DNA of 64,000 nucleotides from a virus (taxonomy: Duplodnaviria > Heunggongvirae > Uroviricota > Caudoviricetes), in IMG/VR virus record IMGVR_UViG_3300035494_000066; one strand, 5' to 3'. Position 1 is the first letter of the stretch; each line of letters starts with the position of its first letter. Made by a program: the position numbers and the translations under genes. Shown one piece after another: positions 4,121-61,646 of the stretch. Below the pieces are notes generated by a model. That model was not told the DNA's origin, made no database searches, and saw only the letters and a program-made list of their open reading frames with translations.

Positions 4121-4124
4121 AGTT

Positions 4125-6998: not shown

Positions 6999-7058
6999 GT
7001 CTGTGTCCTTCTTAACGTTTATGTATTAAGTATACAGCCTGTATTGTTGTTGTCAACC

Positions 7059-8911: not shown

Positions 8912-9005
8912 ATAGTATGCGTTTTTACTTATCAGCGTAAGGCCGCACCCCCTGCTAATGAACTTTTTTAACGTAGTGTTCGTCTACGTTCACGGGCGTG
9001 TTGTT

Positions 9006-9186: not shown

Positions 9187-9196
9187 ATGTTAAAAT

Positions 9197-9270
9197 TGGT
9201 GGGTCTGCCTGGAATCGAACCAGGACCGAGCGGTTATGAGCCGCCTGCTCGACCGTCAAGCTACAGACCC
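9197..9270 (-). tRNA. tRNA with CAT anticodon (Met elongator or Ile2-type; 1:72 paired)
   Basis: Hand fold. Acceptor gggtctg/cagaccc, D gctt/gagc, anticodon arm ggcgg-cTCATaa-ccgct, T-arm cctggttcgattccagg, CCA. Confidence 0.65.
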
Positions 9271-9963: not shown

Positions 9964-10040
9964 TGGTGCCAGTAGTGGGATTCGAACCCACACTTTACAG
10001 AATCTCGACCTGCTACCTCTGCCAATTGGGCTATACTGGC
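9964..10040 (-). tRNA. tRNA-like (type undetermined; possibly degenerate or Leu-GAG-like)
   Basis: Perfect acceptor gccagta/tactggc, T-arm gtgggttcgaatcccac and CCA. D and anticodon arms fold poorly by hand. Confidence 0.35.
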
Positions 10041-10056
10041 TATCTCTTATATTGTT

Positions 10057-10085
10057 ATTGTATTTTCTATGTGCTTTTGTGTCAA
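10057..10085 (-). promoter_or_regulatory. sigma70-like promoter TTGACA-17-TACAAT directed into the tRNA-like element at 10040
   Basis: Minus-strand reading gTTGACAcaaaagcacatagaaaaTACAATaac. Consensus -35 box with 17-bp spacer. Confidence 0.5.
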
Positions 10086-10633
10086 CTACTTTTTGAGAGT
10101 TTTTACTGTTTCTTTTAGCTCGCATTCTTTAATTTTACGGATTGTAATGTAAGCTCCATAAATCATTACTGCTGACATAAACACAATCCCAGCGACACTA
10201 GGAATTACAGTCGACAACGTGTATGGATCGATATTTGGCATAGTTAGTCCTGTTGCAGGTTAGTATAATTTCAGAATGGAAGAATTAGCGCAACAATTGT
10301 GGAATTATACTTGCCTTTGTGCTTAGAGTAGCCTTTTTTAATAGCCTTTTTCTTATCAGTATGTGTAACGGCTTTGTTGTACTTTAATGCATTCTTTGCA
10401 ACGTAGTTTCTGTTATTCATCGTCTATCTCGTTTTTATTTTCTTTTTTGCTATGTTGCTGCTTGAGCTCGTGTGCTTGTTTGATCACTGATGCCTCGCAC
10501 GAAACGTTGATATCTCGCAGTCGAAAACCGCATGCTTGAATGTAGTTAATAGCAGTCCTGTAGTCCATTTGCAGCTCCGTTTAGTTTCTTATTTACCTGA
10601 ATATTATAGCAGAAACAGACTACAGGTCAACCT

Positions 10634-11080
10634 TTAATGTGATTTTTTCTCTTCGTCGTAGACACGTTTCCGCAGTGATGACGAACTAAACGAATGTTCG
10701 CGATCATTGAACACACACTTGTCCATGTGACCTGAGATGTCTTTGCCTGTAAAGTGCTTGGTTTTGTATTCATCGCCAAGAATACGAACATCATAGTCTA
10801 AGCACAGCAACAAGTCGTGCAAATCCTTCTCTGTGTGGTACACAATTGTGTGGTCTACATAACGTGAGGATGCTACTTGTATTTGGCGCTCAACGATCGA
10901 CTGTACTGGCTTATTCTTTGACGGACGATCTGCACTCGGGTCAATTTGGATTGCTACAATCAAATAGTCACAATGTTTCTTTGCGTCCCGGAACATCAAG
11001 TGATGCCCTGCATGACACAGGTCAAACGCACCAGCAGTAATGCCTACAGTCAAATTCTGTCTATTAGGAATGTCGATCAT
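10634..11080 (-). CDS. cytidylyltransferase-family nucleotidyltransferase (TagD / RfaE domain II-like, HxGH)
   Basis: GAFDLCHAGHHLMF (HxGH), DYLIVAIQID, ILGDEY and a C-terminal SSSSLR motif resemble glycerol-3-phosphate cytidylyltransferase. 148 aa. Confidence 0.6.
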   Translation of the reverse strand: MIDIPNRQNLTVGITAGAFDLCHAGHHLMFRDAKKHCDYLIVAIQIDPSADRPSKNKPVQSIVERQIQVASSRYVDHTIVYHTEKDLHDLLLCLDYDVRILGDEYKTKHFTGKDISGHMDKCVFNDREHSFSSSSLRKRVYDEEKKSH

Positions 11081-11409
11081 AAGTCTCTCTCATATTTTTC
11101 AAAAATAGCGATGAACACCAAGTCATCAGAGCTGCTATCGTTGTATACACGGTGGAAAGCGCCATCAGGTATCATAAAAAGAGAACCGCTCTCAACTTGG
11201 TAGAAATCGTTGTCGATTTGTATGCGGCCTGTCCCGGAATGAAAGATGTAAACCTCTTCAAGCCCTGGATGAGAGTGGCCGCGTGTCTGCATCTCAGGAT
11301 GCAATGTTGTTTTTGATACTGTTAGATGATTTAGGAACGTGTTATCTTCGAGTAAGTAAGTCTCGTTGTCTTTGATAACGGTTCCGTTTAAGTTTTGGAT
11401 TGATGTCAT
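11077..11409 (-). CDS. cupin-domain protein (110 aa)
   Basis: GHSHPGLEEVYIFHSGTGRI cupin motif. Start overlaps the upstream gene stop by 4 nt (coupled). Confidence 0.55.
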   Translation of the reverse strand: MTSIQNLNGTVIKDNETYLLEDNTFLNHLTVSKTTLHPEMQTRGHSHPGLEEVYIFHSGTGRIQIDNDFYQVESGSLFMIPDGAFHRVYNDSSSDDLVFIAIFEKYERDL

Positions 11410-11439
11410 ATTAATTGTGTATTATCTTTTTACCCGATA

Positions 11440-12075
11440 CTAAAGTATACTGCTTAGGAAAAGCTGGATATCCAGCTTTTCCTTAGAGCTTGCAGCAACT
11501 ATCTCAATAACCCGGGCGCGACCAACTACTCGCCCGCCGATTTTAAAGCATACACCGCGGTCAGTTTTTTCGATTGCAATTGGAGTTTTACGAGGGTTGC
11601 TGCCGCGGCTGTAAATGGTCATAGCAGCCGAACCGCCTTTTTGTACAGCTTCTTTCACAGCATTAACTGCAGCAGCAGCCTGCTTTGCACCAACTTCTAC
11701 ATCTGCATCAATTGCAGCTTGTTCAGCGTCACGCGCTGCAGCGTATTCGGCTTCTTTTTTAGCCCGGAACTCTGCATGCATTTTGCCTAGCTTGTCTAAG
11801 TCAATTGCTGCTGCAACTTCGGTGATTTCTTTAACTGCGTCAGCAAAATAAGAATATGCTTCAACATCGGACTCTACTTCTTTAGTGTCGCGTCCACCGG
11901 AAGAAACTGAAATTTCACAAGACCATTTCTCATCGCCGAACCCTACTGGACGAATATACAACCGGATCACGTCCGACCAAAAGCCTTTTACTTTTACTGA
12001 AACAGTTGGACGGGATTCAACAAGTTCTTCGTAGCTCGGAACAGAGTAAGAGTAGTTGTTGCTCATTTCTATCAC
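11440..12075 (-). CDS. hypothetical protein with Ala/Glu-rich central region (211 aa)
   Basis: Minus-strand ORF preceded by the TATAAT-leader promoter motif at 12083-12105. Confidence 0.5.
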   Translation of the reverse strand: MIEMSNNYSYSVPSYEELVESRPTVSVKVKGFWSDVIRLYIRPVGFGDEKWSCEISVSSGGRDTKEVESDVEAYSYFADAVKEITEVAAAIDLDKLGKMHAEFRAKKEAEYAAARDAEQAAIDADVEVGAKQAAAAVNAVKEAVQKGGSAAMTIYSRGSNPRKTPIAIEKTDRGVCFKIGGRVVGRARVIEIVAASSKEKLDIQLFLSSIL

Positions 12076-12144
12076 CTCAGTCGCTTAACTTATGCTTGTA
12101 TTATAGCACCGAGTGATACGAATGCAAGTGGTTTTTGCAATTAT

Positions 12145-12414
12145 CTAATTCTTTTCAACTAACTCAAGCAGTACGGATAGTCCGTGTGGGTTAGTTCCGT
12201 GCACAGTCCAGCGCTGACTTATGTCGTTAACGTTAATGCGGGCGTCTAACTCGTACGACACACTGTCAGACATTGTTACAACAAGCTTACAATATGCATT
12301 GTCGACTTTTTGAAACCCAGAAACATTAACGCTGTTGATTGTTAGCTCAGGACTGGTTGGCTTTCTTCTTTTGTACCAACTTTGCGGCATTACTTTAAAT
12401 GTGTATTCGGACAT
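12145..12414 (-). CDS. hypothetical protein (89 aa)
   Basis: Minus-strand ORF in the gene array. Confidence 0.4.
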   Translation of the reverse strand: MSEYTFKVMPQSWYKRRKPTSPELTINSVNVSGFQKVDNAYCKLVVTMSDSVSYELDARINVNDISQRWTVHGTNPHGLSVLLELVEKN

Positions 12415-12432
12415 TTAGTACCTTGTACAGCA

Positions 12433-12780
12433 CTACAACACCTTTAGTAATTTGAGTGCGTTTTTAGTTAATTGAACGTATGTGTAGTTTGTCGAGTACG
12501 GCTTGAACCCGTTGTACCGCTTCGTGGGAGAACTGAGTGATTCTCGTATACGGACTAAGTATCCTGTTTTGATTAGTTTTTGGAAATCTGCATCTCGGTT
12601 AATGACAAAGCAGTATCTGCGATTAACGGGTATTCGGAGATCACGACCGTAATCGTTAATGAACTTGAGTATAGCGTAGCGTCGAGGTTGACCCGACGAC
12701 ATTTGGCATATTTTGCGAAACGCTTCTGCTTTTGTTTCAACATGTATCGATTGGTTGAATGTCTTTTGCAAGTGCTTCAT
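12433..12780 (-). CDS. hypothetical basic protein (115 aa)
   Basis: Minus-strand ORF. Lys/Arg-rich. Confidence 0.4.
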   Translation of the reverse strand: MKHLQKTFNQSIHVETKAEAFRKICQMSSGQPRRYAILKFINDYGRDLRIPVNRRYCFVINRDADFQKLIKTGYLVRIRESLSSPTKRYNGFKPYSTNYTYVQLTKNALKLLKVL

Positions 12781-12794
12781 ACTATACTCGAAAT

Positions 12795-12870
12795 TGGCAG
12801 GTCGGGCGAGATTCGAACTCGCAACCTTGGTGTTTGGAGCACCCTGTTCTGCCGTTGGAACTACCGACCT
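12795..12870 (-). tRNA. tRNA-Trp (anticodon CCA)
   Basis: Hand fold. Acceptor aggtcgg/ccgacct, D gttc/gaac, anticodon loop cTCCAaa, T-arm gcgagttcgaatctcgc, CCA. Confidence 0.65.
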
Positions 12871-13057
12871 ATTTTTCTGTTATATCGAACTGACGCGTAG
12901 TATTTACACGTCTTAGCATACGAACTGTCGCTGTGACAGCTGTAATCTGCTTTAATGCACAACCCGTTTCGTGTAGTGCCCCAGTCCTTTATGCGAATAA
13001 AGTTAGTGCAGTTCCCACATGTTCTTCCAGTTGGCATATACATTTACTCTAAAATTG

Positions 13058-13131
13058 GCAGGGGTACCAAGAATTGAACTTGGACCACTGGAGTCAAAGG
13101 CCAGTGCTCTACCATTAAGCTATACCCCTAA
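13058..13131 (-). tRNA. tRNA-Gln (anticodon TTG)
   Basis: Hand fold. Acceptor aggggta/tacccct, D gctt/gagc, anticodon loop cTTTGac, T-arm ccaagttcaattcttgg, CCA. Confidence 0.65.
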
Positions 13132-13136
13132 ATTTG

Positions 13137-13211
13137 GAGGCGTGTGTGGGAATCTAACCCACAAAAACATGATTTGCAGTCATGCCCGTTAACATTCCGG
13201 CAACACGCCAA
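13137..13211 (-). tRNA. tRNA-Cys (anticodon GCA), U73
   Basis: Hand fold. Acceptor ggcgtgt/acacgcc, anticodon arm catga-cTGCAaa-tcatg, T-arm gtgggttagattcccac, discriminator T, CCA. Confidence 0.6.
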
Positions 13212-17966: not shown

Positions 17967-18370
17967 CGATAAAACGGTTTCGGAATATGTAACGTTAGTG
18001 TGCCGTTAAATCCTAAGTATGGCATCGGAGGTAGTTCACCGAATTCAGTATGGTACTTTCCGAATCGAAAAATATTCTCTGCCACATTAACATCGTCTAT
18101 GTATAACTCGTCGATTATAACAGCAGTTTCTTTCTCTACATAGTGCTTATTCTGCATGGATACTGTGATTGTAACGTCGTCTAACAACGGTATAGACGTG
18201 TTAACGTGTACATCATTGTACAAGTCGCAATCTAATAGAGTAATGCCGTTTACTGTCACAGTAACGCCAGGGAAGCCGGCGTCGACTATAGGACGTAACT
18301 TAGCTCTTACTTGAAGACGTAGGTCGCTGGTATCCGTGCCGGATAAAAAGTTCTGTATACACTGGGACAT
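17921..18370 (-). CDS. hypothetical protein (149 aa; true start may be internal)
   Basis: Overlaps the rSAM gene by about 70 nt. Confidence 0.4.
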   Translation of the reverse strand: MSQCIQNFLSGTDTSDLRLQVRAKLRPIVDAGFPGVTVTVNGITLLDCDLYNDVHVNTSIPLLDDVTITVSMQNKHYVEKETAVIIDELYIDDVNVAENIFRFGKYHTEFGELPPMPYLGFNGTLTLHIPKPFYRWRHDIKEYGWYITQ

Positions 18371-19610
18371 AATCTAATATTGAATTTTTCCTTACTGCTT
18401 CTATCTTAGTTATAAACGATATCAAGTCAGCAAACCTATAAGTGTCACTAGGCGCCGAGTTAAGATAGTTGATATAACTTGTCACATCATGATACAAACT
18501 TGATTCTACTACAGACGGCGCTCGGGCATTAGGATTAGAAGCACTCCTTGACACCTGTTCGGAGAATGTAGAGTCTCGCCAATTGGTAAGATCCTCGACA
18601 ATCGTTGCTCGAACACTGTCGGGCAAGACAGTTGGCCGCATGTACTCTGGAAATTCCAAGAAATTACAACTCTCTACGCTCATACTGTTTGCAAGTGCGT
18701 ACTCGTATATAGGGATTAGCTTGTGTACAGTAAAGATGGTAGGTGTTGTTCGGAGTTGGATTAACCATTTAACTCCGTCGTTAAGACTTGCCCAGCGATC
18801 TAGCTCAGCTTTTGCATCAGCAATGTTAGATCCGTATCGCACATAGTCATTGACTTCGTCTAGTGACTCAATACTTAGTCCGACATGCACTTGCCTAAAC
18901 TCGTGTAACAAGTGAACGATACTATCGTCCCAGCTGGATAAGTTTGTAGTAAACCCGATTATAACTTTGTTTGCTACACCAGCTGCTACAATTTCATTAA
19001 TTAAACGCTTAAATGCTGGGATAATTAACGTTTCACCGCCGATGAAATGCAAGTATGCCGGCTGATTCAGCTTAACTAGATCATTAACAAATTTGTCAAC
19101 TAGGTCTGGATCATCAGTCCAGTTTTTGTGAGAGTGCGAATCGATTATTTTTGCTTTTATCAAATCGTGCGCTAGTCGGCTACTCGATTCTGGTTTGCAA
19201 AATATACATGCATTATTGCAGTAATTTCCTAGATCTATTTGCCAGTCGACCGGAAATATCTGAGCAGTAGAATCCGTTAGCCTGTCTTTCCATTCTGAGC
19301 TTAGTAGAGATTTTTCAAACGCAGTTATGTCGATACCGGTCTTAATTAGCTGCTGTGCTCTACCACTGGTTTTTCCATACTTGTCCATGTTGTAACACGG
19401 AGTACAATTATGCACAACTTCGCCGTTGACATGTTGTTGCCTAACAGCTTGCATCACATTATTAAAGTATTCCAAAGGAGACATATCGGATATGTGGGGC
19501 ATTGTAGATGGGCGATACGCCCATCTACAATAGTTGTAGTGCCCCGACGCAGTTATCCGGAAATGAAACCAAGGGCTCGAGCAAAATGTTGTTTTGAGGT
19601 CAGACATCAA
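18300..19610 (-). CDS. radical SAM enzyme, SPASM/twitch-type, with N-terminal Cys-rich domain (436 aa)
   Basis: CNNACIFC (CxxxCxxC), [14 protein letters not shown] and ESLDEV blocks parallel the 4734-6197 protein. N-terminal CTPCY...GRAQQ motif. Confidence 0.75.
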
Positions 19611-24105: not shown

Positions 24106-24501
24106 TCAAAGTTCAATCTCCTGCCATCGGGCTTTCACTTGGGCTACTTTTTCTTCCGGTACTCCGTGTACATTTTGAAACTGCCCTTTGCACTCGATCA
24201 GTTGAATGTAAGCATTATATTCGTTTGCAAGAGCTACGTACGGTTTAACTTCTTTTCGAGTAGTAAATGTATTGCTCACAATCACATCGCGGCCTGCTTT
24301 GAGTTCGAGCTCAACTTGCTGCTGGCACCATGAGTGCGCTGACCGGAGTTTACTAGGATCAAATTCGTACGCAGCTGTTTCGGGGTTTACAAAGTACATA
24401 TCAGCTTCGTAGTACCGAATAGCGCTTGCATTTGCAAGAGCCTTAGCAATAGTGCTTTTGCCTGAACCCGGTACGCCGCGTACGATAGTAAGTGTTGCCA
24501 T
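24106..24501 (-). CDS. P-loop polynucleotide kinase domain protein (T4 Pnk kinase-domain-like, no phosphatase domain)
   Basis: GVPGSGKST Walker A. VIVSNTFTTRKEV...ANEYNAYIQLIE aligns with the T4 Pnk N-terminal domain. Confidence 0.6.
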   Translation of the reverse strand: MATLTIVRGVPGSGKSTIAKALANASAIRYYEADMYFVNPETAAYEFDPSKLRSAHSWCQQQVELELKAGRDVIVSNTFTTRKEVKPYVALANEYNAYIQLIECKGQFQNVHGVPEEKVAQVKARWQEIEL

Positions 24502-24531
24502 GTATTACATTCCTTTGGTATAGTTGTGTCT

Positions 24532-31535: not shown

Positions 31536-32429
31536 TCACTTACCGAGTTGCATCTGACCAGCTACAGTCTGCATCATATCAACCGGCATGAACACCTTGT
31601 TATCGCTTGCTGCCATCTGTTCCATGATCTGGAAGGAACGATATACTTTGTAATTAGGGGTCATACTATCACCCATGATCTTATTGACTTCAGCTTCAGC
31701 ACGGGCTTTCTCAACTTCAATCTTACGGCGCATTTCCTGTTCTTGTAGCTCACGTTCTAGCTGAACCTTGCTAATTTCCAGTTGAGCATTCTCTTGTTCA
31801 ATCTGCTCACGTCGCTCAGCAGCTTTTTCCTGTGCCTGGGTAATGATCGGAGGATATCCTACATCAGCAAGACCGAGGTAACGAACCTTGAAGGGAGTGC
31901 GTTTCTCGATGCTCTCAGCAAGACGACTTGACAGTTCCTTATTGATTGCGTCACGGCTACTAGCAATCTCTGCAATGGTGAACTGACTCAGATACTCTCG
32001 CGCTTCAGATCGAATAATGTCTTTAGCGTAAGTGTTATAAACAGTAGCTAGCGGAATTTGATAAACACGATCATCATCTGTAGGTCTGGGAGTTACCTTT
32101 GCAAACACCTGTTCATAATCATTAGGATTGACAGACAAGGTTGCGCGTAGATCGAAGGTCATCATCAGCTTATCACGAGGCATGAACAGCTCCATCTTCT
32201 CAGTCACGCTCTGGTCTGCAGCATTCAAAGTGACTAGCTTATCACAATACGCCCAACACCAATCCAGGCGGAACTTGGAGGTTGGAATTACGCCTTCCTT
32301 ATATCCGTTTTTGGTCATGACCTTGCCAACTTCAGCTGGAGCAACTTCTGCGACCTGGCCACAACCCACCATGCCAACAGCAAGGCCTGCGATTGCAGCT
32401 ACTTTAAGAATCTTAGACTTAATAGACAT
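31536..32429 (-). CDS. SPFH/band-7 (stomatin/prohibitin/HflKC-like) lipoprotein
   Basis: Lipobox LAVGMVGCG. SPFH-like core followed by a long EQ/RK-rich coiled coil (REQIEQENAQLEISKVQLERELQEQEMRRKIEVEKARAEAE). Confidence 0.55.
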   Translation of the reverse strand: MSIKSKILKVAAIAGLAVGMVGCGQVAEVAPAEVGKVMTKNGYKEGVIPTSKFRLDWCWAYCDKLVTLNAADQSVTEKMELFMPRDKLMMTFDLRATLSVNPNDYEQVFAKVTPRPTDDDRVYQIPLATVYNTYAKDIIRSEAREYLSQFTIAEIASSRDAINKELSSRLAESIEKRTPFKVRYLGLADVGYPPIITQAQEKAAERREQIEQENAQLEISKVQLERELQEQEMRRKIEVEKARAEAEVNKIMGDSMTPNYKVYRSFQIMEQMAASDNKVFMPVDMMQTVAGQMQLGK

Positions 32430-34856: not shown

Positions 34857-36476
34857 TTACTTGTACGCTGCTAGTCGTTGCCGGATATCACTTAGTGTAC
34901 TAGTGTTGTACATCACACCATTGCAATATCTCAGTTTAAGTTCGCCGGTTGCAGCTTGCTCTTCGGTTTGCTGATCATACAGTACAAAAGAACCGTTTTC
35001 TTTTTCAACTCGCAGCAGACCTTTTGCCGACTTCTTAACGCCAGAGTCTGTAGCAGGGTCTTTAAAGATCTCCCGGCCAACGCCGTCGACCTCGCCGTAT
35101 GTTGCTTTCATTGCGTAGCCCAGGCTATCGCGTGTGTTGTACTGGTATGTATACGACCCGATGCCAAACACAACGTTGGTGCTAGCAAAACCTTTGTCTT
35201 TGAGTCGTTGCATAATTGCATCTGCCCGATCGAGTGTAATCGAATCACCGTAAATCAACCCGATGTGCTCGTCGAGGAGTTTATAACCCATTCCGGTCAC
35301 GGTACCTCCGAACGTGTCCCAAAGACACTCAACTGCTCCCTTAACTTCTGCTTCGCTAAGTTCGACAGAAGAGTTGTAATCATCACTTGGATCAGAGACT
35401 GTTCTAATAACACCGCGATACTTGTACGCTTCGTACTTCTCTTGTACGAGCTCTGGGTAACTTAGCTCATGATTAGCGTCCATGTCGTACATTTTATAGC
35501 CTGTTAGGATTTTAACAGGATCGCCTGAATCAGGGCGCAGTACTACTTTGGACAACCCGATTGCATTCCGGTCCCGTTTCATGATGCCATCTTTCAGTTT
35601 TGGCATGTACTCAGTCACCACTTTCCAGAAATCCCACGTGTCAGACACAACTGACACAACACCAGCTGGGTACAAGTCGAAGATAATACGCCGGAACGTT
35701 TCGATTTCTTCGTCTTTTTGGCCTAGGCACATAACCGAGTGTTCTGTTGCTGGAACACTAATGCCAACAATCTCATTGTCAGAATTAGCACCGTAGTACT
35801 CTTCTAGGTAATCAATTGCAGGAACTGTGTCAGTGCCGATAAACGATAGCAAGTGTCCGGAGCACGAACTTGCAGCATCGTGCAGGCCGCTCATACCGCG
35901 GAAGCTGAAGTCGTGTCCCTGGATTGCACTGAAATCAGTATTGCCTACAGTCTCTAGTGCATAACGATCGATGATACGTCGGTAATCTTTTGCAATAGTA
36001 GCAACAGTCGAAGGCTTCCACAGTTCGGCTGACATTACGCTTTCGATGTAGTTCACTAGCCAGTAAAACTGCGAGTAGCCAGGACTAACATCTACTGTTA
36101 CTGTTGGGATTTTTGCGCCGACCATTTCGCCTTCATCGATGCCTTTGATTGTTAGCGGCAAGAACCCTAGGTCGTGTAGTTCACCGATGTGCTCTACAGG
36201 AACGGCATTCATTCCGAGCGCGTTGTCCAGTCGACGTTTGTATTTTCTTACCACTTTCGCTTTCGGCTTACTAAAAAATGTATCACGCCAGTGATCGATG
36301 AGATACCATTTAATAAAGCCCTGCAGACCGAACACAACAGCAGTGTCACTCGTGCCTTTGTACAGTCGCATAGAACGAGGAGTAAAGTTAGAATACACTC
36401 GGGTAGTACCCGGAGTATATTGCCGGCGATGATCTGCTTTATAAAAATCAATCGCAGTTGGTGCAAATAGGTTCAT
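34857..36476 (-). CDS. nadV: nicotinamide phosphoribosyltransferase (Nampt/NadV)
   Basis: 539 aa. Nampt-like sequence throughout (type II phosphoribosyltransferase). Resembles KVP40-type phage NadV. Confidence 0.75.
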   Translation of the reverse strand: MNLFAPTAIDFYKADHRRQYTPGTTRVYSNFTPRSMRLYKGTSDTAVVFGLQGFIKWYLIDHWRDTFFSKPKAKVVRKYKRRLDNALGMNAVPVEHIGELHDLGFLPLTIKGIDEGEMVGAKIPTVTVDVSPGYSQFYWLVNYIESVMSAELWKPSTVATIAKDYRRIIDRYALETVGNTDFSAIQGHDFSFRGMSGLHDAASSCSGHLLSFIGTDTVPAIDYLEEYYGANSDNEIVGISVPATEHSVMCLGQKDEEIETFRRIIFDLYPAGVVSVVSDTWDFWKVVTEYMPKLKDGIMKRDRNAIGLSKVVLRPDSGDPVKILTGYKMYDMDANHELSYPELVQEKYEAYKYRGVIRTVSDPSDDYNSSVELSEAEVKGAVECLWDTFGGTVTGMGYKLLDEHIGLIYGDSITLDRADAIMQRLKDKGFASTNVVFGIGSYTYQYNTRDSLGYAMKATYGEVDGVGREIFKDPATDSGVKKSAKGLLRVEKENGSFVLYDQQTEEQAATGELKLRYCNGVMYNTSTLSDIRQRLAAYK

Positions 36477-37164: not shown

Positions 37165-38076
37165 TTACACTGACGCAACGATCAACTCGATGTTTGCATC
37201 TGCAGCAGAGTCGAAACTGTCTTGGTTAACAAACGTGTTTGTTGTAATAACAGTATCAATCAGGTTACTAAAAGGTTCGAAGCCTTTTGAAAAAATACCA
37301 TGCGGTGCTGCTAGTGTTACACTAGCCGGATTTAGTTCTTGCAAACGTTCTGCAATTTTAATGAACGTCATCCCACCGTCAACTATGTCGTCGTAAATAA
37401 TCACATGTGCAGACTCGACGTCTTCTCTTGCAGCGCGAACCGTAGTACGTACAATCTGACCGTTAGAAACATTCCTAACTTTGTCTGCACAAACAACACT
37501 AACAGTTGGCGCTTCTGCGTTCGTAGTAGCGTTATACGTGTTCCATTTAGTAACAAAGTCGAGTGTACGCTTAGTTGCACCAGCGTCTGGGCTGAGCACT
37601 ACTACGTTTTTCTTGGTTTCGGAATACAAAGAGTTGCCGTATGCAATCAGTTTATTATTCCACTTGGTTGTCATCGTCTCGGTTTCGACATTGTCGATAA
37701 GAGCACCAGTTACGTCCGAGTGAGGCATTAGTGTATACACAACATCAAATCCTAAGGAATTAATGATATTAGCCATCACCTTGATACCAAACGCCTCGCC
37801 TTCGGTGCACACTCGATCCTGTCGGCCGTACGGTACATAAGGCACTTTTAGGACTAGGTGCTTCGGTTTGTATGTTCGCTTAACAGCATCAGTTAGTAGC
37901 ACTAGCGCAACAATATCGCTGGCAGATTTGAGTTCAGCTGTAATAGTTGTTACGTTACTACGACCTAGTAGATTCGGAGTGCACTTCGGATGTAGTTCGC
38001 CGCCTGCAAACTCAATCCATCTAACATCAGCAATAGACCCGTCATTAGTGACTGTAAAGTTAGTTTTAGTTGTCAT
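37165..38076 (-). CDS. prs: ribose-phosphate pyrophosphokinase (PRPP synthetase)
   Basis: 303 aa. PRPP-binding region IIYDDIVDGGMT and Prs-like N-domain. Confidence 0.7.
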   Translation of the reverse strand: MTTKTNFTVTNDGSIADVRWIEFAGGELHPKCTPNLLGRSNVTTITAELKSASDIVALVLLTDAVKRTYKPKHLVLKVPYVPYGRQDRVCTEGEAFGIKVMANIINSLGFDVVYTLMPHSDVTGALIDNVETETMTTKWNNKLIAYGNSLYSETKKNVVVLSPDAGATKRTLDFVTKWNTYNATTNAEAPTVSVVCADKVRNVSNGQIVRTTVRAAREDVESAHVIIYDDIVDGGMTFIKIAERLQELNPASVTLAAPHGIFSKGFEPFSNLIDTVITTNTFVNQDSFDSAADANIELIVASV

Positions 38077-41245: not shown

Positions 41246-42259
41246 TTAGCCACCAGTCTTCAGAAGATACTTGTTGCTAATAGCCTTCCAGTGGTGGCCG
41301 CCATTTACTTCCTTGAACACTAGACCTTCTTGCTGCTTCTTGGGATTCACTGTACTAAAGTTCTCAGCGCGAGCTAGTACTTGCTCAATTGTTGCGTCTG
41401 TGTCAAACATGTACTCGGCGTCGACAACCGGAACGTGCTTTAACCCTAGTGTTTTGCACAGTGCAACACGTTCTGCGGCAGGCAGATACTTTCCTACACT
41501 GTAGTCGTATACAGTGTACACATAAAAATCTTGTCCTTTGATTCCGTAGTAGTTGCCCTGAATTCCTTCCCCAACAATCTCACCTTGGAGTGCTAGCGTA
41601 GTCAAGTTGTTGTCTCGCAACCGCTGTTCGATGTTATATGCGCGGGCAACTTTCCAAAGAGAGTTCTTCTCGCTCTCTTTGAGATTTAAGTTTCTGCCGC
41701 AAACGATAAAATCACCATCGGCGTCGATTGCAACTGTCATTGAGCTACCTTCGAGTTTTTCGGTAACTTCGTATGTTAGCTGTTTTAGGTCGCCCCACTG
41801 ACTAGCTAGATTCTGGATTCGTTCTTCATCGGTTTTCGGAATGTAGCCAGGGAACACACCTTTAACTTCGCCCGATAGGCACGCTGGGATAGGCGGCTCG
41901 TATTTGAGGATCCCGAGCATCTGAGTAACGTCATCGCCAACTGCAATGTCCATTTTACTGCGCACCAGTGACATAGGAAGGAGCAGGCCTTGACTCAATT
42001 GGCCGCGGAGTCGCATAGTTCGAAGGCGATAACCTTGCACGCCGGAAAATTCAGTCGGGCCAGTGCCGCGGTCAAGGAATGGCGCAATTTCATGCGGGAT
42101 AAAACTGTCAACTTCACAATAAATTGCACGATCGCCAGCAGTGTACTCGCCTTTGCGAACAACAACAGTCCAACCGTCGATAACAGCACACTCAATCTGG
42201 TCGGCTCCGGGGATGCTGCGAACAGAGTCAATTGTACGAATAGATGCTAGCTTTCTCAT
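41246..42259 (-). CDS. ATP-dependent RNA ligase-like nucleotidyltransferase (337 aa)
   Basis: Motif I-like EKLEGSS (KxxG). Ligase-size protein next to a tRNA-rich region and a Pnk-like kinase elsewhere in the window. Confidence 0.5.
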   Translation of the reverse strand: MRKLASIRTIDSVRSIPGADQIECAVIDGWTVVVRKGEYTAGDRAIYCEVDSFIPHEIAPFLDRGTGPTEFSGVQGYRLRTMRLRGQLSQGLLLPMSLVRSKMDIAVGDDVTQMLGILKYEPPIPACLSGEVKGVFPGYIPKTDEERIQNLASQWGDLKQLTYEVTEKLEGSSMTVAIDADGDFIVCGRNLNLKESEKNSLWKVARAYNIEQRLRDNNLTTLALQGEIVGEGIQGNYYGIKGQDFYVYTVYDYSVGKYLPAAERVALCKTLGLKHVPVVDAEYMFDTDATIEQVLARAENFSTVNPKKQQEGLVFKEVNGGHHWKAISNKYLLKTGG

Positions 42260-45358: not shown

Positions 45359-46225
45359 TTAGCGAAAGTTTACTTCGTACTGGAGTTCTATTTCAGGTTT
45401 TGTCTTATTACATAATTTGTTTACACTACACACAATAGAACATGTTTTTTCTGGCGAATCCGATGTCCATGACGGTGCAACATCATCGATTGTTTTATGT
45501 ACTCCGAATATTCCGAAAAAGCAGCACGGGAATAAATCTCCTTTTGCATCGATGTATGCTTTCTTGCCGCGCAAACTAAGGCAATCGATGTGTCCCGGTT
45601 CAGAAGCAGGAGGTACCCAGCCAGTTGGATATTCTAATCCCGGAACCAATGCACGGGTACTTACTTTTGCACGGAATTGAGCAAACCCCAGTGATCTCGC
45701 TAACTCGATGCAGTCTTCTACTTGGTGTTCGTTGTGCTTATATATTAGCATATCCCAGCGGGCATTCCCCCCGGCGTTGATGAACGTCTGTACATTATCA
45801 ATAAGCTTATTCCAGTTGACATTCCGACGGTATATATGATTAGTGTCTGCTAATCCGTCGATGCTAAATGTAACATAATCTGTTTCGTACGAAAGAATGT
45901 CAGCAAGCTCTGCCCACCAACTCGGGCTTCGAATAGCACCGTTGGTGTTTATCGAAAGAGAGCACAGCGGGTTAATCTGTTTAGTTTGTTTTAATATATC
46001 CAGTGTGTGGCGGCCAGCAGCAGGATCGCCGAAGTTCCCGCAGAGTAGCAATCGCTTAAGTTGCTTAATCTGCTCGATGCTAAAATGCGTTAGCACTTGT
46101 TCGAATGACAAATGATTGTTTGACCTTTTATCAAACAATCCAGCGTCTTCTCTAGGACATTGCGGGCAAGCTGCCTGACATACATCAGTACTTTCTAAGT
46201 GTAATACGTTAATTTCTCTGATCAT
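45359..46225 (-). CDS. radical SAM enzyme, SPASM/twitch-type (288 aa)
   Basis: CQAACPQC (CxxxCxxC) at the N-terminus. LCGNFGDP and SINTNGA blocks. C-terminal Cys cluster CLSLRG...PCCFFG. Confidence 0.7.
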   Translation of the reverse strand: MIREINVLHLESTDVCQAACPQCPREDAGLFDKRSNNHLSFEQVLTHFSIEQIKQLKRLLLCGNFGDPAAGRHTLDILKQTKQINPLCSLSINTNGAIRSPSWWAELADILSYETDYVTFSIDGLADTNHIYRRNVNWNKLIDNVQTFINAGGNARWDMLIYKHNEHQVEDCIELARSLGFAQFRAKVSTRALVPGLEYPTGWVPPASEPGHIDCLSLRGKKAYIDAKGDLFPCCFFGIFGVHKTIDDVAPSWTSDSPEKTCSIVCSVNKLCNKTKPEIELQYEVNFR

Positions 46226-53358: not shown

Positions 53359-53829
53359 TCATGCTTCGTATTCTACACAAGTAAACTCAACATCATACAG
53401 TTGTTCGACATCAAGAAGAATTTGTTCAATGATGTTCCAGTCACCGCCTCCTAGCCCACATCCGATATACTTCGGGATGATCAACTCATAGTCAACTTCG
53501 TCGGAGTCGCTATTTACTAGTTGTGTTATTGCGTTTACGAATGCGGCGTAATTAGTATGTCGCTCGCCAGTTCCATAATTAAACTGTGAGAATAGACCGA
53601 CTACACTATGATATGAATCGATCATAGTAAAAAAGTACTCACCAAACATTTCACTAGAACCAAAATGATCTACACACTCTTTGTAGTCATCAAAATGATT
53701 TGGATATGTGTCTCGAATCTGCTTTGCAATACCAGAACCCATTACACCTTGGCAATTTACTTGATGTATGAGGACTGCAGATTTCGAGTTTTTGAAAACT
53801 TCAATTGCGTCGCCGCTAATGTATTTCAT
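53359..53829 (-). CDS. macro-domain (ADP-ribose-binding/processing) protein
   Basis: LIHQVNCQGVMGSGIAKQI and IGCGLGGGDW match the macro-domain nucleotide-binding loops. 156 aa. Confidence 0.6.
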   Translation of the reverse strand: MKYISGDAIEVFKNSKSAVLIHQVNCQGVMGSGIAKQIRDTYPNHFDDYKECVDHFGSSEMFGEYFFTMIDSYHSVVGLFSQFNYGTGERHTNYAAFVNAITQLVNSDSDEVDYELIIPKYIGCGLGGGDWNIIEQILLDVEQLYDVEFTCVEYEA

Positions 53830-58435: not shown

Positions 58436-59104
58436 TCATGTCCAGAGGTTTCTAAAGTATTTCCCGAACAGTAAGAGGCCATTGTCGATCCTTTTCTGGT
58501 ATTTAGCCATCCCTTCGCGATCGACTTTGTAAGTGTGTTTCGGGCCGTGTACTAGTTCGTACATTTGAATTTTACGATCGTCATCGCACGGCTGCCAGTC
58601 GAAGTCAATTTCACCACTGGTAAACTGATCTTCCCACTCACCGTCTAGGTTCTCGAATGCAAAAATCATTTCGTTAATGACCCAATCCCATCGATCAAAG
58701 AACTTAGGATCGGTTTCACCTTTTTCTTTGTACAAGGCTACTTCATCTGGTGTAGGGCGTAGCTCTTCCGGGACATCTTCTACATCAACAAACGGAGCTC
58801 CTTGCTTTTGCTCTTGTAGTTGCTTGAGCATTGGCAGAATAATCGGCTGCAAGGTGGTGTCCATGCTCCATGTATCCCACGGATCGATCCGTACCTTAAC
58901 AGTTTGCTCCATGCGATCGAGCACTACGTTGATAGTGTGATTATAGAACCACTGGATGGCATCGTCTAAGACCTCGATAAGTCTATCGACTCGATCGGGT
59001 TCGAAGCCTCTATAAAACTGCTTCTCGCTGTACTTATAATCCATCCAGTCGCGATGAATATTTGTGATCTTACGTGATACGTATTTTCCGATTTTTACTT
59101 TCAT
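58436..59104 (-). CDS. hypothetical protein (222 aa)
   Basis: Minus-strand ORF. Confidence 0.45.
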   Translation of the reverse strand: MKVKIGKYVSRKITNIHRDWMDYKYSEKQFYRGFEPDRVDRLIEVLDDAIQWFYNHTINVVLDRMEQTVKVRIDPWDTWSMDTTLQPIILPMLKQLQEQKQGAPFVDVEDVPEELRPTPDEVALYKEKGETDPKFFDRWDWVINEMIFAFENLDGEWEDQFTSGEIDFDWQPCDDDRKIQMYELVHGPKHTYKVDREGMAKYQKRIDNGLLLFGKYFRNLWT

Positions 59105-59115: not shown

Positions 59116-59586
59116 TTAAGATCCTTGTTGTTCTAAATTAGTGTAATAACTGCGCAAGGTTGGGATATTTGCTGCTTCAAGAAGTGTATAATAAACCCAG
59201 TGATTATGGCCAGCGTATGACTCGAGATACTCATCGCCGAGCATAAAATATTCATTAACAAACTTTGCAACAGCGCCGGATCGACTAATGCCAGCAAAGC
59301 AATGAACGATCACATCTTTCTTTCGGCGAAACGATTCGTCAACAAAGCTAACAATAGTCTTTGCTTTGTTCTCAGTAAACCCACTCTGATCAGACGAGAT
59401 ATCTGCAAAATTAAGAAAAATTGCAGCTGACTCAGCGGACTTGTTTGCAACCCACATGTCTCGCATTTGATTCTTTTCCGAGTTTGTGTCGCTAATCGAA
59501 ATAAAGTCAACAGCATTCTTCTCAAAATACCCACTGAGAACTAGTTTGATTGCTTCTGCCCGCGACACGAACTTTACAGATTTCAT
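59116..59586 (-). CDS. dual-specificity/tyrosine protein phosphatase (CX5R)
   Basis: VHCFAGISRSG matches the HCxxGxxRS P-loop. Confidence 0.65.
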   Translation of the reverse strand: MKSVKFVSRAEAIKLVLSGYFEKNAVDFISISDTNSEKNQMRDMWVANKSAESAAIFLNFADISSDQSGFTENKAKTIVSFVDESFRRKKDVIVHCFAGISRSGAVAKFVNEYFMLGDEYLESYAGHNHWVYYTLLEAANIPTLRSYYTNLEQQGS

Positions 59587-59633
59587 ATGTGAATCACCGT
59601 TTTGCCTAGTAGTTAATGTACGTAGTATAGTGC

Positions 59634-60173
59634 CTACTGCAGATGTGTGTCGATCAGTTTTTGCACATGTTCATTGAGCCGTTTGTATAAATCGTCGGGC
59701 AACTTAGTTAACACTTCTGCAACTTTCTTTTTTTCCGGAAGATACACTGCAGCAAATTTCCGATCTAGATTTGCAATGCTACTAGTGTTCGAAATGATAT
59801 CAAACGCTTTAACAATTTGACTTTTTTCGGATGCTGCAGCAACATGGTTGCGATCAATTGCTGCCCGGGTTGCTCGGTTGCCGTCGGCTAACGTGCTAAC
59901 GTCAGTTACCCCTGCAACAATATCTGCAATTGCCGGGCCGAACATCTGGCTCACTAGCTCAATCGACACATTAGTATCTTCAACTACGTCATGAAGAAGC
60001 GTTGCTGCTAACACGTCAGAGTCAGTAGTAAACTCTCTTGCATAACAGTATACTTCTACAGGGTGGACAATATACGGTTCGTTTGTATATTTCCGCAACT
60101 GACCTACTGCAGCGTGTGCTGCCGAAGCAAAGATGTACGCATCTTGTTCGATTTGAGTCAGAGGTTCTATCAT
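59634..60173 (-). CDS. HD-domain hydrolase resembling the RelA/SpoT (p)ppGpp-hydrolase domain (small alarmone hydrolase-like)
   Basis: YIVHPVEV...LLHDVVEDT...GVTDVS mirrors the SpoT HD motif set (HP...LLHDvvEDT...GVTKl). 179 aa. Confidence 0.55.
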   Translation of the reverse strand: MIEPLTQIEQDAYIFASAAHAAVGQLRKYTNEPYIVHPVEVYCYAREFTTDSDVLAATLLHDVVEDTNVSIELVSQMFGPAIADIVAGVTDVSTLADGNRATRAAIDRNHVAAASEKSQIVKAFDIISNTSSIANLDRKFAAVYLPEKKKVAEVLTKLPDDLYKRLNEHVQKLIDTHLQ

Positions 60174-60194
60174 TTGTATACCTCACTATGGTAG

Positions 60195-60491
60195 TTATAA
60201 CAAGTCGGGAGTGTTGGGGTATTCTGCGAATGCGATTGCAGTTACAGCGCCTGCAGCTACTTCAGTTAGCCCTAAATCACGCTGGACTACTGTATTCGTA
60301 CATAGTTTAGCATCATTGAACATTTTGTCAAGTTTTGCAGTACGGGCTTCGAGTACAATTATCCGACTAGGAGATGCTTGAATTTGTAAGCTTAAACGTG
60401 ACACTGCATGACCAACTTGGCTTGCAATCTTGCCCGGGGACATATTGAGAGACTTGTTGTAATAGCACTTAAACACAATGTCATTGCTCAT
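60195..60491 (-). CDS. PTH2-family peptidyl-tRNA hydrolase-like protein
   Basis: SPGKIASQVGHA resembles the PTH2 GKGKIAAQCSHA block. C-terminal DLGLTEVAAGAVTAIAF resembles the PTH2 C-terminus. 98 aa. Confidence 0.45.
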   Translation of the reverse strand: MSNDIVFKCYYNKSLNMSPGKIASQVGHAVSRLSLQIQASPSRIIVLEARTAKLDKMFNDAKLCTNTVVQRDLGLTEVAAGAVTAIAFAEYPNTPDLL

Positions 60492-60811
60492 TTTAGTAGG
60501 ACTCCATCAGAAAAGTTGCCTTTTACACTAGTCTTATGCCGGCGCAGCCGCTGGACTGTTGCAGCAAAATCACAGCCTTTTACTGCTAGCAAACTGTCGA
60601 CAACATCCAGTAGATCACCGATTTCTTCAGCAAGTTCTGAGTCTGATTCCGCGGCGTCGATTTCGATAGCTTCTTCGACTATTTTTTTAACCAAATAGTA
60701 CTGGACCATTCGGGGCACTAGCTCAGCTGGATAAGTTTCTCTGATAGTAGTAAACTCACACGGAGTGGTGTAGCCTATAATCTCAGGTATGTGGTTTCTA
60801 ACAAGTTTCAT
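60488..60811 (-). CDS. MazG/HisE-like NTP pyrophosphohydrolase
   Basis: EEIGDLLDVV EExxD/ELGD motif typical of all-alpha NTP-PPases. 107 aa. Confidence 0.5.
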   Translation of the reverse strand: MKLVRNHIPEIIGYTTPCEFTTIRETYPAELVPRMVQYYLVKKIVEEAIEIDAAESDSELAEEIGDLLDVVDSLLAVKGCDFAATVQRLRRHKTSVKGNFSDGVLLK

Positions 60812-61098
60812 TTGAGTTCTCTATTAATGTATTCAATTAAGTCACTAACATAACACACATCGACACCGTTCTTTACAGTCTTAACCTGGTCGATAGCATC
60901 GCGTATTGCCTGAGCCTTAAGGGATAAGATAGACTCGTCGGGGTTTTCTCGCAACATTGTTTGCACATCGCGCCATGCTAATGTGCCTGCTAAAAAATCC
61001 GAGTTTGTTGTTTTTATTCTTGCGATCAATTCGATTGCATCGTGTAGTCGTTCGCATCTCGCGTTTAGTTTTGTTAAGCGGTCATCGTCTGTGGTCAT
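60808..61098 (-). CDS. hypothetical protein (96 aa)
   Basis: Minus-strand ORF coupled to the MazG-like gene. Confidence 0.35.
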   Translation of the reverse strand: MTTDDDRLTKLNARCERLHDAIELIARIKTTNSDFLAGTLAWRDVQTMLRENPDESILSLKAQAIRDAIDQVKTVKNGVDVCYVSDLIEYINRELK

Positions 61099-61163
61099 TG
61101 CTAGCCTTACTGTGCAGAACTTCTGCTACCTAACGCAGAGAGGCTTCTTGATATACTGCAGTA

Positions 61164-61646
61164 TTATTTATGCATATATTGTGCAATTGCACGAGCAATA
61201 ATTTCAGCGTCAGCTAATGCCCTATGCGGCCGGTGTTGCTGCGCTAAGTACGAAACGCAATTGCTAAACTTATCCCACGGCACTACAGTTTCGATACCAA
61301 CAATATCGAAGCTCGGCGTCATGTTCGCAGCATCGTATAACACGCTAAGCCAGTTTGCGTCAAACCCCGGAGCGTCTGATACCATAACACTATCGCACAC
61401 TGCATTAATGCGCTCGCATGCTTCAGTAACCGAAATGCCAAACTCGTTAATTTGCTCGCGAGACAACCCGTGTATGAGCTCGGCATTATAATCCCAGTGG
61501 GTCCACTGCGGCTCGGGCTTGATGTAAAAGCTAATACGTTTAGCAGGATCGGCTAGATCAAATATACCTACTTCAATTGGGTAACTGTCGGGGTGTAACC
61601 CTGATGCTTCTACGTCAACTACCTGAATGTTATTTACTGAGTTCAT
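61164..61646 (-). CDS. DEDD-family 3'-5' exonuclease (DnaQ/RNase T-like)
   Basis: VVDVEASGL Exo I motif. 160 aa. Confidence 0.55.
   Translation of the reverse strand: MNSVNNIQVVDVEASGLHPDSYPIEVGIFDLADPAKRISFYIKPEPQWTHWDYNAELIHGLSREQINEFGISVTEACERINAVCDSVMVSDAPGFDANWLSVLYDAANMTPSFDIVGIETVVPWDKFSNCVSYLAQQHRPHRALADAEIIARAIAQYMHK

Follow-up and report, generated by a model that had tools for sequence, protein, structure and literature searches.

The hydrolase genes at positions 59116-61646 of the window, the whole 64-kb stretch of phage DNA that was analysed, are best explained as accessory genes of a divergent T4-like jumbo phage, and we think it somewhat more probable than the reverse that their PTH2/HD/DSP core (59116-60491) keeps tRNA and translation working under host attack. 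The core appears to belong to the established phage toolkit for tRNA and translation rescue rather than to a new anti-CBASS or anti-Thoeris system. All component classes except the Cys phosphatase have already been described in jumbo phages; what is new is that adjacent PTH2, HD and DSP genes are shared with an unrelated phage (contig L005).

Layout of the hydrolase locus

The ORF list agrees with the first-pass annotation on the presence and coordinates of the hydrolase genes. That annotation spoke of five consecutive genes, and five hydrolase-type genes are indeed there, but they are not strictly adjacent: a 96-aa ORF intervenes, giving six genes within 59116-61646, all on the minus strand. 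The features referred to below are as follows.

58436-59104: downstream neighbour, phrog_11543, minus strand, 222 aa
59116-59586: DSP-like Cys phosphatase, minus strand, 156 aa
59634-60173: HD hydrolase, stand-alone RelA/SpoT-type (PaSpo-like SAH), minus strand, 179 aa
60195-60491: PTH2-like, a mini-PTH2 peptidyl-tRNA hydrolase homologue, minus strand, 98 aa
60488-60811: MazG-like, a probable all-alpha MazG/HisE-type NTP pyrophosphohydrolase, minus strand, 107 aa
60808-61098: unannotated ORF between the MazG-like and DEDD genes, minus strand, 96 aa
61164-61646: DEDDh 3'-5' exonuclease, minus strand, 160 aa
41246-42259: RNA ligase, 17 kb from the cluster
24109-24504: AAA_33-like ORF, 35 kb from the cluster

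ATGA overlaps are found at the u112/DEDD, u96/MazG-like and MazG-like/PTH2 junctions, the remaining intergenic gaps are 11-65 nt and no terminator-like site was found inside 59116-61646, which together are consistent with co-transcription of the predicted hydrolase gene run. The downstream neighbour (PHROGs E 9e-46), a very widespread phage protein with at least 5036 homologues that recurs near DSP, PTH2 or HD homologues in other phages, is possibly in the same transcription unit as the DSP gene. Small genes in a single long minus-strand array make up the whole 64-kb window. It is normal for unrelated small early genes to stand in long arrays in T4-like phages, and this counts against reading the run as a rescue set. 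The window also carries 29 tRNA genes in addition to the RNA ligase and the kinase-like AAA_33 ORF. No kinase, RNA ligase or metallophosphoesterase is present at the locus itself, and a metallophosphoesterase was matched nowhere in the window.

Enzyme families and catalytic residues

Its sequence marks the HD protein as a complete small alarmone hydrolase (SAH) of the RelA/SpoT type. It matches Pfam HD_4 with 63.1 bits (cut-off 27.2), TIGR00691 spoT_relA over positions 1-125 (E 4e-23, NCBIfam) and phrog_990 (PHROGs), and its solved relatives, with motifs aligned, are Rel/SpoT hydrolase domains, Mesh1 and a (p)ppApp hydrolase (E 5e-14 to 2e-7 for the Rel/SpoT domains and Mesh1). The motifs VHP at 36, LLHDVVEDT at 59, GVTDVS at 88 and FDIISN at 124 supply a complete catalytic and metal-binding set (H37, H61-D62, E65-D66, D125, N129) that is invariant among seven relatives. 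The protein is a single domain of 179 aa with HD-type matches only and no synthetase domain, and is 42% identical to PaSpo of Salmonella phage SSU5 over 80% of its length. The resemblance to a small alarmone hydrolase noted in the first-pass annotation is thus confirmed by curated profiles and by the identity to PaSpo, and no hydrolase residue is missing from the alignment. PaSpo neutralises every toxSAS tested, as phage SAHs do (PMC7229694), and with SAHs pyrophosphorylated tRNA regains its aminoacylation (bioRxiv 10.1101/2021.04.30.441581).

The PTH2-like gene passed its profile search, matching Pfam PF01981 with 34.1 bits (cut-off 23), and by its predicted protein belongs to a phage "mini-PTH2" family of about 90 aa that keeps the PTH2 signature residues. 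The family comprises 92 representatives, mostly of 80-100 aa, and its profile matched all solved PTH2 structures (E 1.6e-13 to 2e-9). K21, D72 and T84 are invariant in the 34 members aligned, and Q25, H28, G74, T76 and E77 are kept in at least 90% of them; we take the Lys of GK.A.Q..HA and the Asp and Thr of D.G.TE...G..T to have an active-site role in Pth2. With 98 aa, the window protein shows a gap of ~12-14 residues relative to solved PTH2 in the alignments, located after the first helix. The proposal that PTH2 would be an unusual phage acquisition does not hold, as PTH2, HD alarmone phosphodiesterase and MazG-like enzymes have all been catalogued in jumbo phages by Iyer et al. (2021, PMC7824862), who treat PTH2 as an enzyme of RNA repair and ribosome rescue.

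Of the five assignments, three (DSP, MazG-like and DEDD) lie below curated thresholds and rest on E-values and motifs, the DSP call on a predicted fold as well. For the DSP-like protein this DUSP/DSP fold is predicted with confidence. It scores 32.4 bits against Pfam DSPc (E 9e-8; cut-off 33.5), matches Tc-R-P (E 1e-5, Pfam) and phrog_5614 (E 5e-22, PHROGs), and most of its homologues carry a precomputed PF00782 match. The HCX5R(S/T) phosphate-binding loop is present as HCFAGISRSG at 95, with H95, C96, G99, S101, R102 and S103 (HCxxGxSRS) invariant in 25-27 homologues, and the family alignment shows R9, D33 (ISISD) and D62 (FxD) to be invariant too.

The MazG-like protein is a probable all-alpha MazG/HisE-type NTP pyrophosphohydrolase. 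Its matches to PRA-PH (20.3 bits, cut-off 21.3), MazG (15.8, cut-off 22) and TIGR03188 (histidine_hisI; E 1.6e-4, 21.8 bits, cut-off 42.7) are accompanied by the acidic motifs EEAIE (46-50) and EEIGD (62-66), which align with those of the HisE structure 1yxb (E 0.08). No homologue was matched by tblastn in isolate phages. The 96-aa ORF has no significant match in Pfam, PHROGs or NCBIfam and has homologues only in near-identical contigs; its ATGA overlap predicts that it is translationally coupled to the MazG-like gene. It had been left out of the first-pass annotation. For the DEDD protein no more specific name than putative generic DEDDh exonuclease is justified: it scores 23.4 bits against RNase_T (cut-off 24), E 5e-5 against NF004719 DEDDh (NCBIfam) and E 1.5e-9 against phrog_192, and by inspection the Exo I, II and III residues D11, E13, D96, H141 and D146 are present (DVE at 11, GFD ending at D96, HRALAD at 141). 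Its homologues among isolate phages occur only in PA5oct-like jumbo phages, at 32% identity, and its best solved match is the CBASS accessory protein Cap18 (7t2s).

Linkage of the core genes and its possible meaning

In contig L005 the HD, DSP and PTH2-like genes are consecutive, and these three are the only ones among its ~25 genes with homologues in the window. Just two cases of the exact trio came to light, one in the phage of the window itself and one in L005, and it was absent from 74 further metagenome PTH2 loci. A DSP-family gene lies within 5 kb and on the same strand in 38 of 80 IMG/VR loci selected for the HD proteins closest to the window's (41-55% identity), compared with one of 65 PTH2-selected loci. 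When HD lineages are drawn at 60% identity, these 38 loci fall into only ~4 of 13, so that shared descent accounts for much of the count.

Whether such linkage reflects a shared function at all can be questioned. The genes could be independent, moron-like accessory genes that have come to be neighbours in a hyperplastic early region of the T4-like type, their recurrences arising from common descent and general accessory clustering. The small-gene array, the few lineages behind the HD and DSP loci and the highly variable neighbourhoods of DSP and PTH2 homologues would all fit this explanation, as would the 96-aa, MazG-like and DEDD genes, which have no conserved partners and, except for the MazG-like homologue directly upstream of HD in contig L078, are not conserved beside the core. 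We nevertheless consider it unlikely, since L005 and the window share exactly three adjacent genes and nothing else, the HD/DSP cassettes described below keep their linkage while their gene order is shuffled, DSP genes often accompany HD-selected but hardly ever PTH2-selected loci, and in unrelated contigs the genes next to PTH2 are time and again concerned with tRNA or RNA repair.

In other phages the HD-DSP pair recurs, in varying order, with an AAA_33 P-loop kinase, a calcineurin-like phosphoesterase and a T4 Rnl1-type RNA ligase. Kinase, phosphoesterase and RNA ligase stand together at one locus in the L130-L209 cassette clade and in L078, where the order is MazG-like, HD, AAA, DSP, with a metallophosphoesterase and Rnl2 in addition. 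The window DSP aligns with the DSPs of the HD/RNA-ligase cassettes over 131 columns (hhalign probability 98.8%, E 4e-17); these form a sister subfamily, with only 28% identity over 68 residues in pairwise BLAST. One cassette DSP has a sub-threshold PTP-SAK match, while none was found for the window DSP in Pfam, and RlaP is followed by DSP in L076. HD-like and calcineurin-like domains have been named as RNA-end phosphatases (PMC7824862). We raise tentatively, and with some doubt, the idea that SAH-type HD and DSP proteins form an unrecognised RNA 3'-end-healing pair, working in kinase/metallophosphoesterase/Rnl1 cassettes or with mini-PTH2. To our knowledge, an SAH-type HD protein is not a canonical end-healing enzyme.

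The neighbours of mini-PTH2 genes are of a similar kind. SmpB lies directly downstream in L031, L035, L040 and L047, HAD_SAK_2 directly downstream in Shewanella phage 1/4 and Aeromonas phage PAc, and a CCA-adding enzyme adjoins the gene in L075, L253 and L244; a kinase, a metallophosphoesterase and a DUF2828/DUF7788 protein, the last read as Ro/TROVE-like, occur nearby in L069, L265, L276 and L257. Recognisable RNA or translation neighbours are present in only ~8 of 28 mini-PTH2 lineages. As the neighbourhoods point to RNA ends, tRNA and translation rescue, we read the core as a rescue set whose work includes reversal of toxSAS damage.

From the families, their intact motifs and their linkage we infer the substrates and the shared pathway. 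The HD protein would remove 3'-pyrophosphate from (p)ppGpp and (p)ppApp and from tRNA CCA ends pyrophosphorylated by toxSAS enzymes (such as CapRel, FaRel2 and PhRel), while PTH2 would set tRNA free by hydrolysing the ester bond in peptidyl-tRNA or N-blocked aminoacyl-tRNA that stays on stalled ribosomes or has dropped off them. The Cys phosphatase may be an accompanying end-healing or de-phosphorylating enzyme. The MazG-like, 96-aa and DEDDh proteins would provide neighbouring nucleotide and nucleic-acid housekeeping outside the core. If the HD and DSP proteins do form the end-healing pair raised above, PTH2-HD-DSP would be a dedicated toolkit that cleans tRNA acceptor ends and reverses chemically different toxin lesions, namely 3'-pyrophosphorylation by toxSAS/CapRel, N-acetylated or peptidyl-blocked aminoacyl-tRNA, and phosphorylated ends or translation factors, and the true work of many phage "alarmone hydrolases" would be RNA repair.

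The first-pass annotation had proposed an anti-stress and anti-signalling role instead, in which HD and MazG-like enzymes destroy (p)ppGpp and (p)ppApp, with the DEDD exonuclease breaking down CBASS, Thoeris or cyclic-oligonucleotide messengers, the targets being small-molecule signals and not RNA. Parts of it stand, namely the SAH-type HD protein, a bona fide relative of PaSpo, and the PTH2 profile match, and a part in counter-nucleotide defence has been suggested for the HD alarmone phosphodiesterases and MazG of jumbo phages (PMC7824862; PMC12846349). The MazG-like gene lies beside HD in L078 as well, and the link of the DEDD protein to Cap18 is in its favour, if weakly. However, it is linear 3' ends that DEDDh enzymes attack, and the match to Cap18 reaches only E 0.017. 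The suggested CBASS and Thoeris targets found no backing in Pfam, PHROGs or NCBIfam, where no protein matched a known cyclic-nucleotide-degrading or sponge family: Acb1-type 2H, Apyc1-type MBL and Tad sponge families gave no match to the six proteins (E<=0.1 for Pfam and NCBIfam, E<=0.01 for PHROGs), in libraries that may lack some such models. Moreover, DEDD and MazG-like genes are not conserved beside the core in other phages, and the PTH2 and DSP genes that travel with HD are left unexplained. As a full account, anti-signalling is therefore quite improbable.

Very improbable, finally, is a role in NAD(P) or ADP-ribose metabolism, with HD as a MESH1-like NADPH 2'-phosphatase and DSP dephosphorylating ADP-ribose phosphates or related metabolites, both aiding phage NAD+ salvage against NAD-depleting defences: NADPH phosphatase activity is reported for MESH1 (as cited in bioRxiv 10.1101/2021.04.30.441581), the closest DSP homologues adjoin NAMPT, PRPP synthetase or Macro-domain genes in L004, L081 and L076 and the window encodes all three, but these lie 5-24 kb from the cluster, the company of HD homologues consists of genes for kinases, phosphoesterases and RNA ligases and not of NAD genes, and the scheme has no place for PTH2. 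Other close DSP relatives are isolated small genes in tail-gene regions, and both settings of the DSP relatives weigh against the rescue reading.

Comparison with known systems

The window HD protein shares with SSU5 PaSpo and PVP-SE1 PbcSpo a single HD_4 domain of ~180 aa with the H/HD/ED/D/N set, encoded by a phage and lacking a synthetase domain. It differs in adjoining PTH2 and the DSP phosphatase; its nearest relatives lie in kinase/phosphoesterase/RNA-ligase cassettes, a context not described for PaSpo or PbcSpo in the literature consulted.

The MazG-like protein resembles MazG/HisE pyrophosphohydrolases, including phage MazG, in size, in its helical EExxE...EExxD motifs and in weak PRA-PH/HisE profiles, although it falls below the curated thresholds and lacks a close isolate-phage homologue. 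The DEDD protein has the D-x-E, D and H-x4-D motifs and profile matches of DnaQ, RNase T and Cap18, but is very divergent, and its sequence gives no basis for choosing a DNA, tRNA-end or oligonucleotide substrate.

Compared with archaeal and eukaryotic PTH2 and the group 2/3 jumbo-phage PTH2, the window protein likewise matches PF01981 above threshold and carries the signatures GK(L/I)A(A/S)Q..HA and D.G.TE...G..T, and it shares with the jumbo-phage enzymes a setting of tRNA genes and RNA repair. In contrast, mini-PTH2 proteins have about 90-98 aa and not 115-120, owing to the ~12-14-residue deletion, their activity is a predicted one, and the window gene directly adjoins an SAH.

With regard to RNA end-healing systems, namely T4 Pnkp/Rnl1, bacterial Pnkp-type kinase-phosphoesterase-ligase systems and the "Swiss Army Knife" (SAK) phosphatases (HAD_SAK_2 PF18143, PTP-SAK PF22784), the window differs in the distance of its kinase-like ORF (35 kb) and RNA ligase (17 kb), in having no metallophosphoesterase match and in a DSP that does not match PTP-SAK. 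The likeness lies in its relatives: HD/DSP homologues are found with an AAA_33 kinase, a phosphoesterase and Rnl1, and mini-PTH2 is paired with the SAK RNA-repair phosphatase HAD_SAK_2 in two isolate phages.

The hydrolase cluster and its source

Five consecutive hydrolase genes had been described at 59116-61646 in the first-pass annotation; the genes are present, but they number six, with a 96-aa ORF among them. Inspection finds every motif it quoted in the sequences. Profile support is strong for the HD and PTH2-like proteins and weaker for the dual-specificity-type cysteine phosphatase (DSP), MazG-like and DEDD proteins.

Genes of the cluster
59116-59586, minus strand: DSP-like phosphatase; 32.4 bits against a cut-off of 33.5, near threshold
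59634-60173, minus strand: HD protein; HD_4 63.1 bits against a cut-off of 27.2; N-terminal hydrolase part of spoT_relA, E 4e-23
60195-60491, minus strand: PTH2-like protein; profile 34.1 bits against a cut-off of 23
60488-60811, minus strand: MazG-like protein; PRA-PH 20.3 bits against a cut-off of 21.3, near threshold
60808-61098, minus strand: 96-aa ORF; no significant profile match
61164-61646, minus strand: DEDD exonuclease; RNase_T 23.4 bits against a cut-off of 24; phrog_192, E 1.5e-9

Since the junctions comprise three ATGA overlaps and otherwise gaps of 11-65 nt, and no terminator-like site was found inside the cluster, its genes are very probably co-transcribed. The 96-aa ORF is an orphan, coupled translationally to the MazG-like gene via an ATGA overlap, and has homologues in near-identical contigs only. 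The EExxE and EExxD acidic motifs of the MazG-like protein align to HisE, and tblastn found no homologues of it in isolate phages. The DEDD protein carries the DEDDh motif set, and PA5oct-like jumbo phages alone among isolates have homologues of it. The solved protein that it matches best is Cap18, a CBASS accessory exonuclease, at an E value of only 0.017, and the proposal that the cluster targets CBASS or Thoeris finds no support. These three genes show no conserved linkage to the core (PTH2-like, HD and DSP genes), except that a MazG-like gene lies beside HD in L078, a 200-kb contig. The co-occurrence of a 222-aa neighbour with DSP and PTH2 was rejected as specific evidence because that protein belongs to a huge family without a fold match.

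All genes across the 64-kb window are oriented on the minus strand (ORF list), and among its large ORFs are those for T4-type topoisomerase II subunits, DNA ligase, RNA ligase, NAMPT and PRPP synthetase. The topoisomerase II large subunit shares only 36% identity with Aeromonas and Vibrio T4-like phages, megablast of the region against 50,697 phage records gave no match, and metagenome contigs of up to 302 kb encode proteins identical to those of the window. The source is therefore a T4-like jumbo phage, uncultured and very divergent.

Other features of the window
18-13209, minus strand: dense array of 29 tRNA genes, several isoacceptors duplicated
4734-6197, 18300-19610 and 45359-46225, minus strand: three radical-SAM proteins
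24109-24504, minus strand: AAA_33 polynucleotide-kinase-like ORF
31536-32429, minus strand: Band_7 protein
34857-36476 and 37165-38076, minus strand: NAMPT and PRPP synthetase, an NAD+ salvage pair
41246-42259, minus strand: RNA ligase
53359-53829, minus strand: Macro-domain ORF; PF01661 22.1 bits, at cut-off

One ARAGORN call in the tRNA array (3968-4043) has an irregular anticodon loop. The kinase-like ORF, the Band_7 protein and the RNA ligase are RNA-repair-type genes scattered through the window away from the cluster.

The three core proteins

The best solved relatives of the HD protein are Rel/SpoT hydrolase domains, Mesh1 and a (p)ppApp hydrolase, with which its HP, LLHDxxED and D...N motifs align. 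The catalytic residues, whose absence would have counted against the alarmone-hydrolase reading, are all present on alignment, and H37, H61-D62, E65-D66, D125 and N129 are invariant with six phage relatives. By tblastn, 233 genomes of isolate phages have a homologue, among them Salmonella phage SSU5 (42% identity). PaSpo of SSU5 and the small alarmone hydrolase (SAH) of PVP-SE1 counteract all toxSAS toxins tested (PMC7229694), and tRNA whose CCA end has been pyrophosphorylated by FaRel2 regains aminoacylation through SAH enzymes (bioRxiv 10.1101/2021.04.30.441581). The alarmone-hydrolase assignment agrees both with this literature on phage SAHs and with a role in tRNA and translation rescue.

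A word-indexed search with the PTH2-like protein yielded 3 matches; searching 1.8 billion representatives exhaustively gave 92 mini-PTH2 homologues, mostly of 80-100 aa. Across an alignment of 34 of these, K21, D72 and T84 are invariant and Q25, H28, G74, T76 and E77 nearly so, while the family profile matches every solved PTH2 over its whole length (E 1.6e-13 to 2e-9) with a gap of ~12-14 residues. By these conserved signature residues and the whole-length match, the protein is a predicted shortened PTH2 with complete motifs, and the initial assignment passes profile search. The suggestion that PTH2 is an unusual acquisition for a phage does not hold, as jumbo-phage PTH2 has been described and assigned to ribosome rescue following tRNA cleavage (PMC7824862). 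No second Pfam domain was found in the longer PTH2 homologues, so fusions are uninformative on function.

The DSP has 46 metagenomic homologues (38-100% identity), with R9, D33, D62 and HC-x2-G-x-SRS invariant in the family alignment. Its AlphaFold2 model is confident (pLDDT 93.7); the substrate is not revealed by the predicted fold. The family is nearly missing from genomes of bacteria and archaea and so looks phage-specific: among 185,579 of them it appears on 4 MAG contigs only, and neither HD or RNA-repair neighbours nor a toxSAS partner were seen on these four.

Linkage of the core genes across phages

On L005, an 8.4-kb contig, HD, DSP and PTH2-like genes are consecutive in that order, and in a comparison of all its ORFs with all those of the window these three are the sole matches; the trio is thus common to otherwise unrelated regions, with its order permuted. 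The same contig bears a Gad2-family (PF26128) protein and a dCMP deaminase at 625-1518. The exact trio was found only in the window's own phage and in L005, and a metagenome scan of 74 PTH2 loci revealed no further example.

Single-protein scans of IMG/VR gave one locus each, and alignment-based scans were therefore adopted, which recovered at least 481 phage SAH loci. Among the best 80 of these, those with the HD most similar to that of the window, 38 have a gene of the DSP family no more than 5 kb away and in the same orientation, compared with only 1 of 65 loci chosen via PTH2; the 38 collapse to about 4 of 13 HD lineages when clustered at 60% identity. The HD-linked DSPs form a sister subfamily of the window DSP (28% identity by pairwise BLAST; hhalign probability 98.8%, E 4e-17, 131 columns). 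They recur in a cassette of variable order with an AAA_33 P-loop kinase, a calcineurin-like phosphoesterase, the SAH-type HD and a T4 Rnl1-type RNA ligase.

Recurring neighbourhoods at other loci
L130-L209 (e.g. L143 2406-6000, L144 3673-7031): the above cassette in uncultured phages, order shuffled between contigs, with a conserved 67-aa protein
L031, L035, L040 and L047, ~6190-6680: SmpB immediately downstream of mini-PTH2; PF01668, 166 bits

L078 also combines MazG-like, HD, AAA-ATPase and DSP genes with a metallophosphoesterase and Rnl2. On another contig, L076, the gene directly upstream of DSP encodes RlaP, an RNA-repair nucleotidyltransferase. No kinase, metallophosphoesterase or ligase was found at the window's cluster locus.

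Neighbours of mini-PTH2 were surveyed at 65 IMG/VR and 74 metagenome loci, some of which place SmpB or CCA-adding enzyme directly beside it. Where SmpB follows, a Pol-beta-type nucleotidyltransferase lies two genes upstream and an HD protein ~3.5 kb downstream. HAD_SAK_2, according to Pfam family descriptions and PMC7824862 a "Swiss Army Knife" phosphatase of RNA repair, adjoins mini-PTH2 in Shewanella phage 1/4 and Aeromonas phage PAc. A kinase, a metallophosphoesterase and a DUF2828/DUF7788 protein are further direct neighbours; the last we read as Ro/TROVE-like, Pfam supplying the DUF names only. In one phage lineage (L041-L053, e.g. L053 4685-5989) mini-PTH2 is flanked by PARP-catalytic-domain proteins and a PF09414 RNA ligase.

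It is possible that the three genes are unrelated neighbours, which would make the locus ordinary accessory content of a jumbo phage; the recurrence of the trio on L005 and the frequent HD-DSP pairing have to be weighed with the few HD lineages concerned and with RNA or translation neighbours being recognisable in only ~8 of 28 mini-PTH2 lineages. A link of the phosphatases to NAD is likewise possible. The closest DSP homologues also adjoin NAMPT, PRPP-synthetase or Macro genes, or stand alone; the first two lie beside them in L004 and L081, and Macro-domain homologues in L076 (5468-5944, directly downstream of DSP), L004 (1804-2412) and L081 (2221-2865). These Macro-domain neighbours hint at an ADP-ribose or NAD connection of the DSP family.

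A putative RNA-repair and translation-rescue guild

tRNA-targeting defences, among them CapRel-type toxSAS, anticodon nucleases and tRNA-acetylating toxins, are a major abortive-infection class in bacteria. The evidence best supports PTH2, HD and DSP as members of a phage gene guild for RNA repair and translation rescue; it shows family membership, motif integrity and linkage, whereas all substrates are inferred. In this scheme HD would both degrade alarmones and undo 3'-pyrophosphorylation of the toxSAS type, blocked tRNA would be recycled by PTH2, and DSP would be an accessory phosphatase; the three genes upstream encode putative flanking enzymes of nucleotides or nucleic acids. With modest probability, these "alarmone hydrolases" serve to repair RNA ends.

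Should the trio work in the way proposed, it would offer a compact, testable case of a phage undoing several types of acceptor-end damage, and would suggest assaying the widespread phage SAH genes on RNA ends besides free alarmones. The DSP, AAA_33 kinase, metallophosphoesterase, SAH and Rnl1 cassette becomes a candidate RNA-repair module, and two families, the 90-aa "hypothetical" mini-PTH2 and the ISIxD...HCxAGxxRSGA phosphatases, can now carry names.

A full-text literature search for an alarmone hydrolase, an RNA ligase and a polynucleotide kinase together returned nothing, its coverage excluding the RNA-repair survey of Burroughs and Aravind 2016. SAHs, PTH2, MazG and HD-like or calcineurin-like RNA-end phosphatases are already known from jumbo phages (PMC7229694; PMC7824862). 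Apparently new, being absent from the literature examined, are the linkage between SAH-type HD and DSP-family phosphatase genes, the five-gene cassette and the PTH2-HD-DSP trio.
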